Below are positions 19,397 through 30,378 of a DNA stretch of 64,000 nucleotides, one piece after another. The stretch's first letter is position 1. Every line of letters starts with the position of its first letter. A model generated the notes under the pieces. The model saw nothing but the letters and a program-made list of their open reading frames with translations, was not told the origin of the DNA and did no database searches. The position numbers and the translations under genes are program-made. Source of the stretch: a virus; the IMG/VR virus record IMGVR_UViG_3300032893_000018, positions 29,898-93,897 of that record; one strand, written 5' to 3'.

Positions 19397-19693
19397 ATGC
19401 TTCGGGAGCTCACCGCCCGCGCGTTGTGGGTCGCTTCGAACAGCTGCGCACTGGCCGCGGACTTCCTGTCTCGGGCGGCGGATCGCGCGCTGGACGCCGC
19501 GCTGCTCATCGAACCCGCCGAGGAGCCCACGCACGAGGAGGTTGTGCGCGACGGTCCGGTGGTGTCGGACGAGGCGCGGCGGATGATCGCCGACCTGGAG
19601 GAGCGGCCACAACCGCTGCCTGTTGAAACCAAGCCGCTCGTCGGCTCGCTCGCCGATCGCGGGGCGATGGTCGGCAGGAAGTGGTCGCTGTGA
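19397..19693 (+). CDS. Hypothetical protein
   Basis: TATCCT -10 box 6 nt before ATG; overlaps portal start. Confidence 0.5.
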   Translation: MLRELTARALWVASNSCALAADFLSRAADRALDAALLIEPAEEPTHEEVVRDGPVVSDEARRMIADLEERPQPLPVETKPLVGSLADRGAMVGRKWSL

Positions 19694-22248
19694 CGGCCGT
19701 CGCGACGAACTACAAGTTCCCGACCGAGAAGAGCTCGGACGGATCGATCCGCGCCGTGTCGAGCTTCGGCCCCGACATGACGTCCTTCGGCCTGGACCCG
19801 TCGCACCTCGGGAAGGCCGGCTACGACGCGGAGGCGCTGTACAACAGCGAACGCGCCAAGGAGCTCGACTTCCGATCGAGCTTCTACCGGTGCACGAACC
19901 ACAATTGGAAGCCATTCAACATGGACGGCGGGCTGATTGGGCCGCAGGAGCGCAGCGCTCCGTTCGAGGGCGCTCAGCCCATGATGTCGACCATGTCGGG
20001 GCCGACGTCGTACGTGCCGCTGTCGGCGCGCCGCCCGCACGCGCCGGTTCGGATCGCGCGCACGATCGTGCGCGCGTTCACCGGGATGCTCTTCGGGCAC
20101 AATCGCTGGCCCGGGATCCGCAGCGACGACCCCGACACGCAGGCGTTCGGCGAGGCCGTGGCGAAGGCGGCGAACCTCCGGAACCGGTTCGTGCGGGCGC
20201 GGAACCTCGCGGGCTCGTGCGGCACCGCGGCGCTCTCGTGGTTCTTCCGCCAGGGCTCGCCGCGCGTGCGGGTGCACACCGGGCGGTTCGTCCACGTGCT
20301 CGAGTGGGACGACGTCGACGACTACGTCGTGAGGCACGCGACGGAGCTCTACCAGAGCTGGGCGACGCGCGAGACCGAGGACGGGCCGCAGCGCTATCGC
20401 GTGTGGGTGCGTCGCGATTGGACGCCCGAGGCCGACGTCGTGTTCAAGCCGATCGAGGTGACGGGCGAGAGCCCCGAGCAGTGGGTGATCGATAAGGAGC
20501 GGAGCTTCGTTCATGGCGACGGGTTCGCCCACATCGTCTGGCTCACGAACTACCCGGACGACGACGAGCCGTCGGCGGTCGACGGGCAACCGGATTACGC
20601 CGAGCTGTACGACCCGATGGCGACGCTCGACGTGTCGAACTCCGTCGCCGTGCGCGGCGTGATGCGGAACCTCGACCCGACGCTCGTCGTGAAGATGGAC
20701 CCGATGGACGTCGGCGCGGCGATGATCAAGAAGGGCAGCGATAACGCCCTGGTCGTCGGCGAGCAGGGCGACGCGGATTACCTCACGATCGATGGAGATG
20801 TGGTGACGGCGGGCAAGGAGTTCGTCGGCACGCAGCGCGAGCAGATCCTGGAAGTCGCGCAGTGCGTGGTGCCCGATCCGAACGAGGTCGCCGCGGGCGG
20901 CACGAGCTCGGTCGCGCAGAAGATGATGTACGCGCCGATGATCGGCACCGCCGACGTCCTTCGCGAGCCGTGCGGGCACGCGCTCGTCCAGCTGCTCGAA
21001 CAGATGAAGCTATCGGCTGCAAACGAGATGAGCCGACCGCCGGGCGAGGTGCAGGAGTACGACGTCGACCTGTCCGAGCCCGAGTCGGAGCCCGACGCGC
21101 TGGAGCAGGACGACGACGTTGAGAACTTCGAGGCCGAGGAGATGACAGCGGCGGACCAGGAGCAGCCGGCATCCGCGGTCGAGTACTACCTCGACCTCCC
21201 TCCGCGCGTAGTGATCGACGTCGTCGACGGTCAGAAGGTCGAGCGCAAGGTCGAGATCAAACCGGGCGAGGGGAAGTTCTGGCTGGAGTGGGGCGAGTAC
21301 TTCCCGCCGACGTCACAGGACAAGCAGGCCGCCACCGAGGCGGTGTCGTCGGCGGCGGGCGGGAAGTCCGTGCTGTCGCAGCAGACCGCGGTCGAGCTCG
21401 CGTCATCGCTGTACAACAAGGACGCCACGGAGGAGTGGGCGCGCGTGCAGGCGGAGCGCGAGCAGGACGCACGCGAGACGGCGGGCATGTTCCCGGGCAC
21501 GGGCGGCGAGGTCGATCCGAACGCGTCCGAGCCCGTCGACACCCCTGCGCCCGACGACGATCAGGAGACGTTGATCACGCCGACCGACATGAGCGTCGTC
21601 ACGCTCGTGAACGAGGCGCGCGCGTCGGCAGGGCTCGGTCCGCTCCGCACGCCCGAGGGGCAGTCCGACCCCGACGGGTGGCTCACGGTCGAGGAGTTCC
21701 GCGCGAAGCGACAGGCGAAGGGCGAGCAGCAGGGCGCGGTCGAGGGCAAGGTCGCCGCGGGCGTCGACCCAGCGGATGCGGCAGCCGACGCGATCGATGC
21801 GCCGGCTGCCGATGCGCCGCCGACCGATGCTGCCGATCCGCCGACCGGCGGTGGCGACATCACGAACCAGGTCGACGGGATCCTGCAGGGCGATTTCCCC
21901 GACGAGGCGTTCGACTGGGTGCACGACGCCAAGTGGACGGGCCCGACGAGCGTGCCGATTGACAAGATCGACACGTCGCAGCGCGACACGTGGCGCGCTA
22001 GCAAGGAGCCCGGCAAGGTCGCCGACTTCGCTGGCCTGATGCAGGCGGGCGGTGAGGACATCAAGCCGGTGATCCTCGTGCGATGGCCCGGTTCGAAGCA
22101 GCTGTTCGTCGCCGATGGTCACCACCGAGTGCTCGCGGCGGAGAAGGCGGGCGTGCCGGTGAAGGCGTTCATCGCCGACGTGCCGCAGCAGAACGGCCCG
22201 TGGATGACGATGCACTCGAAGCAGATCCCGAAGGCGGCAGGGCAATGA
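19681..22248 (+). CDS. Portal protein with C-terminal ParB-like domain
   Basis: Position after terminase; VNEARASAGLGPL portal C-terminal motif; terminal PVILVR...ADGHHRVLAA. Confidence 0.75.
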   Translation: MVAVTAVATNYKFPTEKSSDGSIRAVSSFGPDMTSFGLDPSHLGKAGYDAEALYNSERAKELDFRSSFYRCTNHNWKPFNMDGGLIGPQERSAPFEGAQPMMSTMSGPTSYVPLSARRPHAPVRIARTIVRAFTGMLFGHNRWPGIRSDDPDTQAFGEAVAKAANLRNRFVRARNLAGSCGTAALSWFFRQGSPRVRVHTGRFVHVLEWDDVDDYVVRHATELYQSWATRETEDGPQRYRVWVRRDWTPEADVVFKPIEVTGESPEQWVIDKERSFVHGDGFAHIVWLTNYPDDDEPSAVDGQPDYAELYDPMATLDVSNSVAVRGVMRNLDPTLVVKMDPMDVGAAMIKKGSDNALVVGEQGDADYLTIDGDVVTAGKEFVGTQREQILEVAQCVVPDPNEVAAGGTSSVAQKMMYAPMIGTADVLREPCGHALVQLLEQMKLSAANEMSRPPGEVQEYDVDLSEPESEPDALEQDDDVENFEAEEMTAADQEQPASAVEYYLDLPPRVVIDVVDGQKVERKVEIKPGEGKFWLEWGEYFPPTSQDKQAATEAVSSAAGGKSVLSQQTAVELASSLYNKDATEEWARVQAEREQDARETAGMFPGTGGEVDPNASEPVDTPAPDDDQETLITPTDMSVVTLVNEARASAGLGPLRTPEGQSDPDGWLTVEEFRAKRQAKGEQQGAVEGKVAAGVDPADAAADAIDAPAADAPPTDAADPPTGGGDITNQVDGILQGDFPDEAFDWVHDAKWTGPTSVPIDKIDTSQRDTWRASKEPGKVADFAGLMQAGGEDIKPVILVRWPGSKQLFVADGHHRVLAAEKAGVPVKAFIADVPQQNGPWMTMHSKQIPKAAGQ

Positions 22249-22380: not shown

Positions 22381-24366
22381 ATGGCCGCGCGGAAACCGCC
22401 ACCGCACGAGCTCGTCAAGGCGACGCGCGACGACGCGAACGCGTACAAGGGTCGCGCCGATCCCGTGCGCGTGCTCCGGGCGAACCGCGAGCAGGTGATC
22501 CGGCTTGCGCAGGGCAAGGGCGTCGGCCGCATGCGCGAGGTGCTGAAGCGCGCGGAGAAGGCGCTCGCGTCGCGCCTCGGCTCGGGCCCGCTTGCCGGTG
22601 GCAAGGAGGGGTTCTCCGCGGTGCAGCGCCGGCTCGCGCTTGCACAGATCCGCGCGGTGGTCGGCGACGTGGGCGATGGCGTGAAGGACGTCGTCGTCGA
22701 TGGTGCGGGGCCTCTCGCGGAGGACGCGGGCGCGGGCGTGATCGACTACATGCGCGCGTCGGATCGGAAGTTCAGAGGCATCGTCGAGCGGCTACCGATC
22801 CGCGAGGCCGCGGTGCTCGACCGCGCGACGCAGGGCGCCGAGAGCAGCGTGCTTCACCGGCTGATGGGCGACCCGAGGAAGGGTCCGGGGATCCTCAAGC
22901 GGTACGGCGACGGCGTCGTCGAGCGGTTCGAGCAGGCGCTGCAGCAGCGCTTCCTGCAGAAGACATCCTGGGAGGACACGCGCGCCGCGATCGTCGCCGA
23001 GTCGCCGTTCCTGCAGGGCGTGCCCGGGCACTGGGCGGAGCGCATCGTGCGCACCGAGTGCTTAGTCGGCGAGACGCCGGTTTCCGGAGCGGTGGTACGG
23101 GCAGCTTTTCGCCGGTGGTACGAGGGCCCGATCGTCGAGTTCATCACCGACAATGGCCGCCACTTCGCCACAACCCCGAATCACCCAATGCTGACGAGGC
23201 GCGGATGGGTCGCGGCGGCGGCTCTCAACGATGGTGACGATCTGGTCTGCTACCGAGGGCAGCAGCACGCGCGTGCGCCTGGCGACGAACACCGTGAGCA
23301 CGCACCATCCACGGTCGCTCAGATATTCGATTCGCTCACGGAGATACGGGTCCTTCAGCGGCGACGCGGTTCCAAGGACGACTTCCACGGCGACGGGATG
23401 CAGCGCGAGATCGAGATTGCGAGTGCCGACCGGGAGCTGGAGGTCGGGGTGTACGCCCCTCTCTTCAAGCCACTGTGCGATCAGATCCTCACCCCAACCC
23501 ACGCGACGCGCCCTGCTTTTTGCCGCAATTGCGGACGCCTTCTGTCGATCGATGAGCAGGCGTGCTTCTGCAGAGCTCCGAATTTGTACTCCCTCCATAC
23601 GCAAACGGTAGAGCACGCCGCGTTTATCGATGCCGAACTCGCGAGCGAGACTCTTGATGCTCTCGCCGGAGACGTAGCGTTTCGCAATCGCTTGCGTGGG
23701 CACCTCGCCGCGGAACCTGGGTGGCACTCCGCCCCTGGTATGAAACGCAAGGCGAGCCGCCGATCGGGTGCGGGCCTTTCCGATCTTGCGCAGATGCTTG
23801 CGCAGAGTGTGGACGTTGGCTCCGGCTCGGGCGGCCGCGTCGCCGGTGCTCGCGCCTGCGACGTAGAGTTCGATGGCGTGGTCGAGGTTCGAATGCGCGA
23901 GTTTCGAGGACACGTCTACAACCTGACCACGTGGGACGGATACTTCTGCATTGCCGGAGCTTATACCGGAAACACGATGGGTGTGTATAACCGCGCGTCG
24001 CTCGACGCGTCCCGCGAGCTCGATGACCAGCTCGGCGACGTCGTGAAGATCCTGTGCGCCACGTTCGACGGTCGCACGGCGTGGGACAGCTACCTCGTGC
24101 ACGGGCAGATCCGGCGCGTCGACGAGCCGTTCGAATGCCCCGAGTATAACGGGTCGGTGCATCGGTACATGCATCCGCCGAACCGCCCGAACGATCGCGA
24201 GGTGGTCGTGACGCACCGGGTGGCGTGGCCGATCCCCCCGGAGCTCCGCCCGCGGCCGAGGAGCGAGGCGGCGTCGCGGTGGGCCGACGCGGGGTACTCG
24301 CGGGCGATGCCGGCGACGCCGCGACAGACCACCGTGCCGCTTGAGCGGTTCGGCAGGGTCGCTTGA
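22381..24366 (+). CDS. MuF-like minor head protein containing an intein
   Basis: Spliced junction RIVRTE|TMGVYN; FDGRT, VHGQIR, HPPNRPNDR; follows portal. Confidence 0.85.
   Translation: MAARKPPPHELVKATRDDANAYKGRADPVRVLRANREQVIRLAQGKGVGRMREVLKRAEKALASRLGSGPLAGGKEGFSAVQRRLALAQIRAVVGDVGDGVKDVVVDGAGPLAEDAGAGVIDYMRASDRKFRGIVERLPIREAAVLDRATQGAESSVLHRLMGDPRKGPGILKRYGDGVVERFEQALQQRFLQKTSWEDTRAAIVAESPFLQGVPGHWAERIVRTECLVGETPVSGAVVRAAFRRWYEGPIVEFITDNGRHFATTPNHPMLTRRGWVAAAALNDGDDLVCYRGQQHARAPGDEHREHAPSTVAQIFDSLTEIRVLQRRRGSKDDFHGDGMQREIEIASADRELEVGVYAPLFKPLCDQILTPTHATRPAFCRNCGRLLSIDEQACFCRAPNLYSLHTQTVEHAAFIDAELASETLDALAGDVAFRNRLRGHLAAEPGWHSAPGMKRKASRRSGAGLSDLAQMLAQSVDVGSGSGGRVAGARACDVEFDGVVEVRMREFRGHVYNLTTWDGYFCIAGAYTGNTMGVYNRASLDASRELDDQLGDVVKILCATFDGRTAWDSYLVHGQIRRVDEPFECPEYNGSVHRYMHPPNRPNDREVVVTHRVAWPIPPELRPRPRSEAASRWADAGYSRAMPATPRQTTVPLERFGRVA
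23059..23973 (+). mobile_element. Intein (305 aa, residues 227-531)
   Basis: Block A CLVGETPV, block B TTPNHPMLTRRGW, block F HVYNLTT, terminal TGN followed by +1 Thr; lower GC. Confidence 0.92.
23062..23913 (-). CDS. Antisense HTH + DUF559/Vsr-like endonuclease nested in the intein
   Basis: Two HTH-like units (AIELYVAGASTGDAA; AKRYVSGESIKSLAREFGI), then E-x3-QWLEERG...QLPVG...DLAL..VAVEV...RIEYLSDRGWCVL; GTG start inferred. Confidence 0.8.
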   Translation of the reverse strand: MSSKLAHSNLDHAIELYVAGASTGDAAARAGANVHTLRKHLRKIGKARTRSAARLAFHTRGGVPPRFRGEVPTQAIAKRYVSGESIKSLAREFGIDKRGVLYRLRMEGVQIRSSAEARLLIDRQKASAIAAKSRARRVGWGEDLIAQWLEERGVHPDLQLPVGTRNLDLALHPVAVEVVLGTASPLKDPYLRERIEYLSDRGWCVLTVFVARRTRVLLPSVADQIVTIVESRRRDPSAPRQHWVIRGCGEVAAIVGDELDDRALVPPAKSCPYHRSGNRRLAD

Positions 24367-24394: not shown

Positions 24395-24643
24395 ATGGCT
24401 CAGCGCCCGAACCGACCGATGAAGCTCGGCGTCACGAAGGCGCCCGCGGCGCGCGACAGCGCCGGGCGCTTCTCCGCGCTGCCCGACAACCCGATCGACG
24501 AGGTCGACGCGGGCAGGAAGGCGAGCGAGTGGGCCCCGGGCATCGGCCAGGGCACGGCGCGCACGTTCGATGAGCCGCTGCCGATGACGCCCGCCTTCAT
24601 CCCCGAGAAGCGCCCCATGGGCGCCATGCGAAACGGACGCTGA
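24395..24643 (+). CDS. Hypothetical protein
   Basis: ORF in head module. Confidence 0.5.
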   Translation: MAQRPNRPMKLGVTKAPAARDSAGRFSALPDNPIDEVDAGRKASEWAPGIGQGTARTFDEPLPMTPAFIPEKRPMGAMRNGR

Positions 24644-29583: not shown

Positions 29584-30378
29584 GTGAAGCGCTGCACGAT
29601 CTGCACTCGCGAGCATCACCGCAAAGACGGTCGGTGCTCCGAGTGCAGTCGCGCACGCAAGCGCGGCGAGCTCTACGGCCGCGCGATCGAGTGGGGGATG
29701 CGCGCCGCGACGGGTCTTCGAGCGTGCACGCACTGCGGGGCGATGAAGGACGTCGACGCCTTCAAGTGGCAGAAGCGGAAGCTCGGCAGGCATCGAACGT
29801 CTTGGTGCAGGGCGTGCCTCAACGAGCGCGCGAACGAGTCGATGAAGGTGCTCTGGCACTCGCCCGAGCGGAGGGCCTTGCGCGGGTTGCAGCGGGGGAT
29901 GCGGTGGCTTTGCAGGCCGAAGCCGTTGACTCCGAACGAACGCGCGGCCAATTGGCGGAATGCGAACCGGGAGCGTTACCGAGAGATCACGCGGTCGTTT
30001 TGGCGCACGCCGAAGGGCAAAGCCTGGATCCGGAATAACCGGGACAAGTTGAGCGCAGCCCGCAAGCGCTTCGCCAGGACGCCGCACGGCCGCGAGGCGA
30101 TCCGCCTGCAGGCGCAGAAGCGGCGGGTGCTCATCGCGCGGGCGGTGTGCACGCTCACGCGGGCCGAGTGGGAGGCGATCGTCGAGCGGCACCGCCACTG
30201 CTGCGCGTACTGCGGGAAGAAGCTCGTCGGCGCCGACCTGACGATGGACCACGTCGTGCCGATCTCGAAGGGCGGGCACCACACGGCGGCGAACGTCGTG
30301 CCCGCATGCGGCTCGTGCAACTCGAGGAAGCACGCGCTGGGCCTGGAGGACTTCCTCGCGCGCCTCCGGTCGTCGTAG
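29584..30378 (+). CDS. Free-standing HNH endonuclease
   Basis: CAYCG...DHVVPISKGG...NVVPACGSCNSRK; N-terminal zinc fingers. Confidence 0.92.
   Translation: MKRCTICTREHHRKDGRCSECSRARKRGELYGRAIEWGMRAATGLRACTHCGAMKDVDAFKWQKRKLGRHRTSWCRACLNERANESMKVLWHSPERRALRGLQRGMRWLCRPKPLTPNERAANWRNANRERYREITRSFWRTPKGKAWIRNNRDKLSAARKRFARTPHGREAIRLQAQKRRVLIARAVCTLTRAEWEAIVERHRHCCAYCGKKLVGADLTMDHVVPISKGGHHTAANVVPACGSCNSRKHALGLEDFLARLRSS

Follow-up and report, generated by a model that had tools for sequence, protein, structure and literature searches.

About 0.9 kb of a 64,000-nucleotide stretch of DNA from an uncultured virus (positions 29,898 to 93,897 of IMG/VR record IMGVR_UViG_3300032893_000018; the whole stretch is called the window below) very probably forms a composite mobile element that is encoded on both strands. 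One strand encodes an intein within a MuF-like head protein, and the other encodes, antisense to the intein, a Vsr-like protein whose function is most likely that of a homing endonuclease. Inteins are the textbook case of a mobility nuclease that is fused in frame to a splicing element. In the window, the predicted nuclease, a protein of 283 amino acids referred to as P0001, would be the product of a separate gene on the minus strand, whose frame shares its codon boundaries with the intein frame, codon for codon. The conservation, the codon statistics and the predicted fold of P0001 all exceed what would be expected of a shadow open reading frame (ORF). The arrangement was proposed by a model that had read the sequence (the original prediction), and the positions that it gave for the intein and for the minus-strand ORF agree with the sequence (Table 1).

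Table 1. Positions in the window of the intein, the antisense gene and related features. HTH, helix-turn-helix; AF2, AlphaFold2; SD, Shine-Dalgarno; nt, nucleotides; aa, amino acids.
Feature	Position	Strand	Basis or remark
MuF-like head morphogenesis / minor capsid protein precursor, 661 aa	22381..24366	+	ORF directly after portal gene
Class-1 HINT intein, 305 aa	23059..23973	+	sequence, Pfam Intein_splicing, AF2, fold search
Cys1, TGC	23059-23061	+	intein first codon
Block B, T39-P-N-H42-P	23173-23187	+	intein
Putative sense-frame filler, intein residues 173-266	23575..23856	+	opposite the two HTH domains; poorly conserved, predicted disordered
Block F, G284-H-V-Y-N-L	23908-23925	+	intein
Asn305, AAC	23971-23973	+	intein C-terminal junction
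Thr+1, ACG	23974-23976	+	intein C-terminal junction
Antisense in-register gene for HTH-HTH-nuclease protein P0001, 283 codons	23062..23913	-	tblastn, profile search, codon tests, predicted fold
Antisense start, GTG	23913-23911	-	complement of block F His285 codon
Antisense stop, TAA	23064-23062	-	complement of intein codon 2, Leu2 (TTA)
Predicted first three-helix HTH, residues ~7-44	23782..23895	-	AF2 helices 7-18, 23-30, 34-44; HTH_20, HTH_23-type matches
Predicted second three-helix HTH, residues ~73-106	23596..23697	-	AF2 helices 73-81, 86-93, 97-106; HTH_28
Predicted Vsr-like PD-(D/E)xK nuclease core, residues ~136-256	23146..23508	-	AF2, VIA-align, Foldseek
E142	23490-23488	-	invariant acidic residue
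D168	23412-23410	-	invariant acidic residue
E177	23385-23383	-	invariant acidic residue
SD-like AGGT, 7 nt before GTG	23921..23924	-	sequence
TATAAG hexamer	23965-23960	-	sequence
Patch 1: sense D108-F-H-G-D-G113, antisense P173-V-A-V-E177-V178	23380..23397		predicted nuclease beta-3 with catalytic Glu
Patch 2: sense block B T39-P-N-H-P43, antisense (R/W)243-V-I-R-G247	23173..23187		predicted nuclease beta strand

Selection on two in-register frames

The first hint of coding on the opposite strand is compositional. The guanine-cytosine (GC) content at third codon positions of the sense frame is above 0.9 in the exteins and falls to 0.6-0.7 inside the intein, and GC at first positions is higher inside. 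The open antisense frame of the window by itself proves nothing, because in-register antisense ORFs open by chance at 68% GC; from stop to stop, this frame spans 444 codons from an ATG at 24396 and extends well past the intein.

Selection was examined with 63 representatives of less than 80% identity, for which one codon alignment serves both in-register frames. Over most of P0001 residues 6-230, nucleotide entropy peaks at the third antisense codon position, which is the first sense position, and amino-acid entropy is lower in the antisense than in the sense frame, with residues 171-200 about equal. The entropy pattern is reversed in splicing blocks A/B and F/G. A synonymous-shuffle test over residues 6-170 in 1861 pairs of less than 45% identity gives an antisense identity of 0.317, as compared to 0.172 expected from the sense protein with shuffled synonymous codons, and a sense identity of 0.197, as compared to 0.178 expected from the antisense protein alone. 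When the same 600 nt are compared by tblastn with the Gordonia phage Vivi2, the antisense frame scores 54 bits and the sense frame 41 bits, and the Pseudomonas and Aaphi23 sequences are reached by the antisense frame only. Because of these entropies, shuffle identities and tblastn scores, nearly all of the conservation in the middle of the intein is assigned to the minus-strand protein.

With the codon boundaries shared, the only codons that read as a stop on the opposite strand are TTA, CTA and TCA. Across the overlap in eight loci of 42-53% GC, these three codons do not occur once in either frame, where 5-23 per frame would be expected from extein usage (with P values, by frame and locus, between 10^-12.9 and 10^-2.4). 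Judged by these sequence comparisons, the antisense frame is under selection at the protein level and the sense frame is kept open.

The antisense start and stop codons are themselves, by their codon counts, under selection. At the alignment column of the window GTG, the 60 aligned representatives have ATG in 44 cases and GTG in 8 (52/60). The block F His codon is CAT, which gives an antisense ATG, in 38 of 45 cases (16.3 expected), and the Leu at intein residue 2 is encoded by TTA or CTA in 30 of 38 (3.7 expected), resulting in an antisense stop at the intein edge. Four loci (L011, L028, L057 and L070) have ATA, a Tyr in the sense frame, at the start column in place of ATG or GTG; another start may be used there, or the nuclease gene may be decaying. 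The inteins of L036, L045 and L055 are about 360 residues long, some 55 residues longer than the others, and lack the start codon at the usual column, suggesting an insertion or rearrangement near block F.

An SD-like sequence, (G/A)AGGTT, is found 7-8 nt before the antisense start in most loci. This putative signal cannot be credited to either frame alone, because it is also the complement of the block F Asn-Leu codons. In Aaphi23, a promoter-like CTTACA, 16 nt, TATAAT with an upstream TG (10/12 matches; L001:2445-2472, plus strand) ends 28 nt before the antisense ATG at 2501, within the C-terminal splicing region of the intein.

Predicted structures of the antisense protein and the intein

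The AF2 model of P0001, generated from a 17-sequence alignment, has a mean pLDDT (predicted local distance difference test) score of 82.9. It consists of the two HTH domains, a long helix (residues 114-133), an alpha-beta-beta-beta-alpha-beta-alpha core (142-234) and then two strands, with the core elements predicted as helix 142-151, strands 157-162, 165-171 and 174-181, helix 189-200 and strand 204-211. VIA-align superimposes model residues 136-256 on the Vsr endonuclease (1cw0_A; Z 10.6, root-mean-square deviation (rmsd) 3.0, 112 residues aligned), and further matches are to the endonuclease-like protein NGO0050 (3hrl_A; Z 9.4, rmsd 2.0) and to the I-Bth0305I homing endonuclease's catalytic domain (3r3p_B; Z 9.3). 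The same catalytic domain (3r3p) is found by Foldseek at rank 2 with a probability of 0.99. In Pfam, HTH_28 matches P0001 at residues 75-104 with 26.2 bits (cut-off 25), HTH_23 is found in 15 of the 17 relatives, and HTH_7, HTH_38 and HTH_58 in many. The second HTH has structural matches of the resolvase or transposase type (Z 5-6.6), and weak matches to the restriction-endonuclease family MTES_1575 are also seen. The assignment of the antisense ORF in the original prediction, two HTH units and a Vsr/DUF559-like nuclease, is borne out by the HTH_28 match, the model and its similarity to Vsr.

Three acidic residues, E142 on helix 1, D168 on strand 2 and E177 on strand 3, do not vary among the 17 close relatives, and their conservation in the 63 representatives is 98-100%. 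Likewise invariant in the close relatives are R152, G153, Q159, G163, N166, R194, G202 and W203, and the set of invariant residues is 89-100% conserved across the representatives. Position 179 is W, L, H or V, no His or Lys is invariant between residues 178 and 200, and R194 is the sole invariant basic residue nearby. Of the EDxHD motif, the E and the first D are present, and a profile search of the PDB gives no match to 3r3p at E values up to 10. The domain is therefore described as Vsr-like by predicted fold and is not filed as an EDxHD member, because neither the His nor the second Asp of EDxHD is conserved, nor is the Lys of (D/E)xK.

In the sense frame, Pfam finds Intein_splicing and PT-HINT only, and neither a LAGLIDADG nor an HNH domain. 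Cys1 is invariant in 42 relatives, and N41, H42 and P43 of block B and N305 are invariant in the sense alignment. The AF2 model of the intein, generated with 42 sense sequences, has a HINT fold, with the Mtu RecA intein as best match (2imz_A; Z 12.3, rmsd 3.0, 111 residues aligned) and 21 further HINT chains at Z >= 8. All 32 chains found at Z >= 2 are inteins or HINT domains, and the 100-114 or so residues that align are the two splicing lobes. Profiles reach known inteins over sense residues 7-86 and 227-305 only, and the corresponding parts are joined directly in solved mini-inteins. The splicing blocks thus appear intact and the sense middle is no recognisable nuclease by family or fold search, in keeping with the original prediction.

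The confidence of the intein model varies along the sense frame, with a pLDDT above 90 for residues 1-66 and 270-305, 44 for residues 70-79, 66-90 for residues 80-170 and 27-41 for residues 173-266. In this last stretch, the sense amino-acid entropy is about 3.0, as compared to about 2.4 for the antisense. Its 94 residues, which lie opposite the HTH domains, look like filler that would need only to stay open. The helices and strands predicted in the sense frame lie exactly opposite those predicted for the nuclease, and so the sense 'fold' may be no more than the antisense alignment mirrored.

The proposed absence of any constraint on the sense frame other than staying open applies to residues ~173-266 and fails at two short patches (Table 1), one of them within the nuclease core, which are by their codon usage constrained in both frames. 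Expected counts were taken from the usage of each gene. Most invariant antisense residues use synonymous codons as expected (E142 is GAG in 33 and GAA in 27 cases; likewise G141, G153, G163, R194, G202 and N166), and therefore the sense frame is free there. In patch 1, antisense P173 is CCC in 40 of 40 sequences (14.9 expected), V174 is GTC in 48 of 48 (22.6), A175 is GCC in 62 of 62 (22.7), V176 is GTG in 62 of 63 (11.0) and E177 is GAA in 60 of 60 (29.4), and exchanges of V and I at antisense positions 174 and 178 leave the sense residue unchanged. In patch 2, sense Asn41 is AAT in 59 of 62 (14.5 expected), Thr39 is ACC in 58 of 61 (24.5) and Pro43 is CCC in 1 of 63 (16.1). These frozen block B codons preserve antisense I245, G247 and R/W243, in a strand that is placed inside the nuclease domain by the model and by the Vsr alignment, which reaches residue 256. 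Between the patches, F90, L93 and G97 are governed by the sense frame, and R152, G153, G163, N166, D168, A170, R194 and G202 by the antisense frame.

Over about 120 codons, one strand encodes the nuclease core and the other the end of the N-terminal splicing lobe together with a conserved sense module (P83...D-F-H-G-D-G...L127). This codon-by-codon alternation between the frames is conserved in phages of both Actinobacteria and Proteobacteria. It is conceivable, if doubtful, that the sense module folds as a genuine part of the excised intein and cooperates with the antisense nuclease, for example in target recognition or control, such that both strands would encode a two-protein homing system; if true, this would be among the deepest natural cases of antiparallel dual coding. 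The frozen codons at D-F-H-G-D-G could also reflect a constraint at the level of nucleic acid.

Distribution, mobility and rival explanations

A tblastn search of 50,697 phage records with P0001 gives 36 records at 25-42% identity, from phages of Gordonia, Pseudomonas, Aggregatibacter/Haemophilus, Vibrio and Cronobacter and from an uncultured virus. Each match sits under a MuF or head-morphogenesis gene, and the match is antisense to that gene in the four of four loci inspected. In Aaphi23, at 43% GC, an antisense ORF of 338 codons lies inside an 800-codon MuF gene. A relative of P0001 was found on 158 IMG/VR contigs, of which 80 were analysed along with two contigs from metagenome-assembled genomes and four phage records, for a total of 86 loci. 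In all 86, the match is antisense in register to an open frame of 251-1294 amino acids, two of the loci being cut by a contig end. Relatives of 25-55% identity occur in at least 86 loci, at GC contents of 0.42-0.74, all of them within MuF inteins and antisense in register.

Among 1.8 billion representative proteins, a profile search gives thousands of matches, 416 of them at E <= 1e-30, and all members inspected have a motif, (H/Y)(W/R)V(I/V)R, in which intein block B is mirrored. The homologue P0046 maps under MuF genes, among them those of 61 Salmonella phage records and of the E. coli phage Snoke, in which the intein is annotated. No free-standing relative of the nuclease was seen among the profile-search members inspected plus P0046, in a search that was not exhaustive. 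Beyond actinophages, the family extends to Salmonella Jerseyviruses, E. coli phage Snoke and phages of Pseudomonas, Aggregatibacter, Vibrio, Cronobacter and Idiomarinaceae. The arrangement is stable and widespread, given at least 158 viral contigs, cultured phages of Salmonella, E. coli, Pseudomonas and Aggregatibacter and two MuF sites, and yet the nuclease gene has been missed by gene callers and annotators almost everywhere; 13 homologues of P0001 had already been called as genes, on mostly short contigs. The GenBank record of Salmonella phage vB_StyS-sam has a 134-codon 'hypothetical protein', ORF43 (L094:1697-2098, plus strand), antisense within the MuF gene. This ORF corresponds to the C-terminal portion of the phage's nuclease gene, which has 250 codons (272 from stop to stop), and most other records have nothing annotated at this position.

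The intein and its antisense nuclease occupy two sites in MuF proteins, RTE/T, as in the window, and HPxN/C(R/D)C, where the slash outside parentheses marks the insertion point. The second-site inteins (L057-L090 and L094, for example L094:1093-3030, minus strand) lie between the Asn and the Cys of HP(x)N/C(R/D)C; they have Cys at +1 and end in H/S/Q-N, as compared to the G-N end of the window intein. With the MuF gene of vB_StyS-sam, 349 Jerseyvirus-type records are found at 80-99% identity, of which 58 cover the intein; among the matches listed for the remaining records, most are split into two pieces that cover 48-58%. In vB_SenS-Ent1, the empty site PAHPN/CRSTT is found exactly where the 272-residue intein sits in vB_StyS-sam. 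Such an exact presence/absence polymorphism is, in these sequences, the signature of a homing element, and it is seen in relatives among the Jerseyviruses only. These cultured phages with and without the intein are a ready experimental system. When the window junction is rejoined (23040-23061 plus 23974-23979), a 6-bp inverted repeat, CATCGT, 10 nt, ACGATG, surrounds the insertion site. Target-site symmetry was dropped as evidence, since the repeat is not conserved in the other junctions of this site (site a).

In the proposed mechanism, the class-1 HINT intein that interrupts the conserved RTE/T motif of the MuF-like head protein would be translated within the precursor and would presumably splice itself out. 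The separate minus-strand gene, from the complement of the block F His to that of intein codon 2, would make a protein of two HTH domains, a long helix and a nuclease; in the original prediction, it would be expressed from an antisense transcript, uncoupled from late MuF expression. MuF alleles without the intein, in co-infecting phages, would be bound and cut by the nuclease close to the insertion site, and their repair from the copy that has the intein would spread the intein and the nuclease gene together. The in-register phase would make coexistence cheap, because each frame remains free of stops as long as TTA, CTA and TCA are absent from the other.

Two rival explanations deny that the antisense frame encodes the nuclease. 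In one, the minus ORF is a shadow, a chance open frame in GC-rich coding DNA that has no product. The stop-to-stop frame does extend beyond the intein, long frames of this kind are common at 68% GC, and neighbouring genes have long antisense ORFs too; however, an antisense ORF of about 300 codons is also open in relatives of 42-44% GC, where 11-19 stops would be expected. Moreover, antisense identity is nearly twice that expected of a by-product, the codon-position entropy has the pattern of a minus-strand gene, HTH matches in Pfam exceed their thresholds, the nuclease fold is confidently predicted, and the start and stop codons appear selected. This explanation is extremely improbable and, as judged by the comparative data, already refuted. 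It is also very unlikely that the sense insert is itself a functional endonuclease or DNA-binding domain, with the antisense similarity as its mirror image. Sense residues 80-170 are modelled at appreciable pLDDT, and D-F-H-G-D-G hardly varies, with the synonymous sites on the opposite strand being frozen, but the model matches HINT domains only among its 32 chains, Pfam finds no nuclease family, and conservation is lower in the sense than in the antisense frame except at the two short patches; the elements predicted exactly opposite the antisense ones may be an echo. The original prediction had named an antisense ORF devoid of nuclease fold or conservation, or a nuclease in the sense insert, as grounds against it. 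The antisense frame has both conservation and a predicted fold, and the sense insert has no recognisable nuclease.

The third rival accepts the antisense gene as real and holds that its product is not, or is no longer, a homing enzyme, and acts as a regulator with a dead nuclease domain or as a nuclease against competitors or host DNA that is kept for the benefit of the phage. This is rather unlikely, although several observations speak for it, and some of these, along with others, weigh against a composite mobile element. The His that serves as general base in Vsr, the His of EDxHD and the Lys of PD-(D/E)xK are absent from the alignments, such that catalytic competence of the predicted nuclease is presumed from the three invariant acidic residues only, and the N-terminal half is dominated by two HTH domains. 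Some VSR-like groups have a vertical-looking inheritance, according to bioRxiv 10.1101/2025.01.02.630785. No intein-less allele of the window's own MuF lineage was found when the N-extein was compared with IMG/VR and phage records, because the exteins are too divergent to find relatives, and so recent mobility is shown only for relatives. The window has GTG as its antisense start instead of ATG. The AGGT and TATAAG sequences upstream of it are present as originally described, but the reading of TATAAG as a promoter finds no support, as a promoter and terminator scan of 22900-24200 gave no site of either kind on the two strands, including no sigma-70-type promoter upstream of the GTG. Promoter-like sites are inconsistent in relatives, with a good one in Aaphi23 and none in vB_StyS-sam. 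The intein ends in Y-T-G-N, with Gly in place of His at the penultimate position of block G; this Gly (TGN) is common to the site-a relatives, and the penultimate His is missing from some active inteins. Finally, expression, splicing, DNA binding and cleavage are all properties that we infer. On the other side, E142, D168 and E177 are retained as described above, and the gene has been found nowhere but inside MuF inteins, with all phage matches under MuF genes and at two different MuF positions, as would suit a nuclease that serves the spread of the intein. The exact intein polymorphism among close Jerseyviruses likewise argues for the homing function.

Known systems, host gene and neighbouring features

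The unusual architecture that was proposed for the window is real, and it has precedents in antisense LAGLIDADG and VSR-like inteins. A survey of actinobacteriophage inteins by Gosselin, Arsenault and Gogarten (bioRxiv 10.1101/2025.01.02.630785, version of 20 October 2025) describes LAGLIDADG or VSR-like nucleases antisense in full inteins, including those of minor capsid proteins. The sense middle is reported there to be without recognisable structure, and the nuclease to match Vsr (1CW0) at Z 10.6 and 3R3P in HHpred at E = 4.6e-5. For antisense LAGLIDADG inteins, the preprint refers to Gorbalenya 1998 and Gogarten et al. 2002, and for Vsr-like nucleases located between the halves of split inteins, to Dassa et al. 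2009. The actinophage VSR-like inteins are like that of the window in that a contiguous intein in a MuF gene carries an antisense nuclease with the same top match, Vsr 1CW0, at the same Z, and the Gordonia phages Vivi2, Affeca, Keitabear and Sedona are both in that data set and among the tblastn matches to P0001. They differ in that the window comes from an uncultured virus and its family extends far outside actinophages. An ORF that spans the distance between block F and intein codon 2, together with two patches constrained in both frames, likewise sets the window apart from the actinophage report, as far as its accessible text goes.

An intein with an antisense nuclease is thus not a new kind of system, and the window adds a member. 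Relative to the accessible text of the preprint, the present analysis adds the spread far outside actinophages, the invariable in-register phase with its codon logic, the selection on the embedded start and stop codons, a quantitative measure of selection on the antisense frame, and the overlap of the nuclease core with a splicing lobe, including the two doubly constrained patches.

Other known systems share parts of the arrangement. The antisense LAGLIDADG inteins (Synechocystis DnaX and others) are likewise contiguous inteins with a nuclease on the complementary strand, and they differ in nuclease family and host genes, as cited in the preprint. The I-Bth0305I or EDxHD family (Taylor et al. 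2011, PMC3239194) likewise comprises phage homing endonucleases with a C-terminal Vsr-like domain behind modular N-terminal DNA-binding repeats. The helix 1 Glu and the strand 2 Asp are conserved in both I-Bth0305I and P0001, whereas the His and the second Asp are not conserved in P0001, which has HTH domains (of the HTH_23, HTH_28 and HTH_7 types) where the I-Bth0305I family has NUMOD repeats. Known members of that family and the Vsr-like nucleases found in fractured genes with split inteins (Dassa et al. 2009, PMC2677866) are free-standing, intron-borne or located on the same strand between split-intein halves, unlike the gene in the window, which lies within a contiguous intein on its antisense strand. 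Nuclear group I introns with antisense homing endonuclease genes (for instance the L2066 introns, PMC9548176) likewise place a mobility nuclease opposite the host gene in a self-splicing element. The host element is a non-coding RNA in those introns, with no second frame to keep open, whereas both strands are coding here.

A separate nuclease on the opposite strand of a contiguous intein supports the invasion of splicing elements by free-standing homing nuclease genes, and the arrangement is an intermediate between full, mini and split inteins. The family is also a natural test bed for two proteins that share codons on opposite strands and a possible new scaffold for Vsr-like site-specific nucleases with HTH targeting modules.

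The exteins of the window match no Pfam or PHROG family. The insertion motif AERIVRTE/TMGVYN is the motif at the same site in relatives whose C-exteins match Phage_Mu_F / SPP1 gp7 (PF04233); the C-exteins of L005 and L006 do so above threshold, directly 3' of the same intein, and annotated relatives of the host gene are named MuF-like minor capsid or head morphogenesis protein. The description of the host gene as MuF-like, where a direct family match is absent, is based on the shared site, the gene order and these relatives. The C-extein (23974-24366, plus strand) has H-P-P-N-R-P-N-D-R where most MuF proteins show HPNCRC, and the relative L007 also has P-P-N-R-P-N-D-R, an observation that covers L007/L027. 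By sequence, the C-extein belongs to a Cys-less MuF subfamily that escapes PF04233.

The portal protein of the window (19681-22248, plus strand; 855 amino acids) matches phrog_64 with an E value of 8.6e-11. Its C-terminal extension has a ParB-like match at residues 758-830 (phrog_1033, E 4e-4) and a D-G-H-H-R motif in the translation, suggesting that the portal is fused to a ParB/Srx-like domain.

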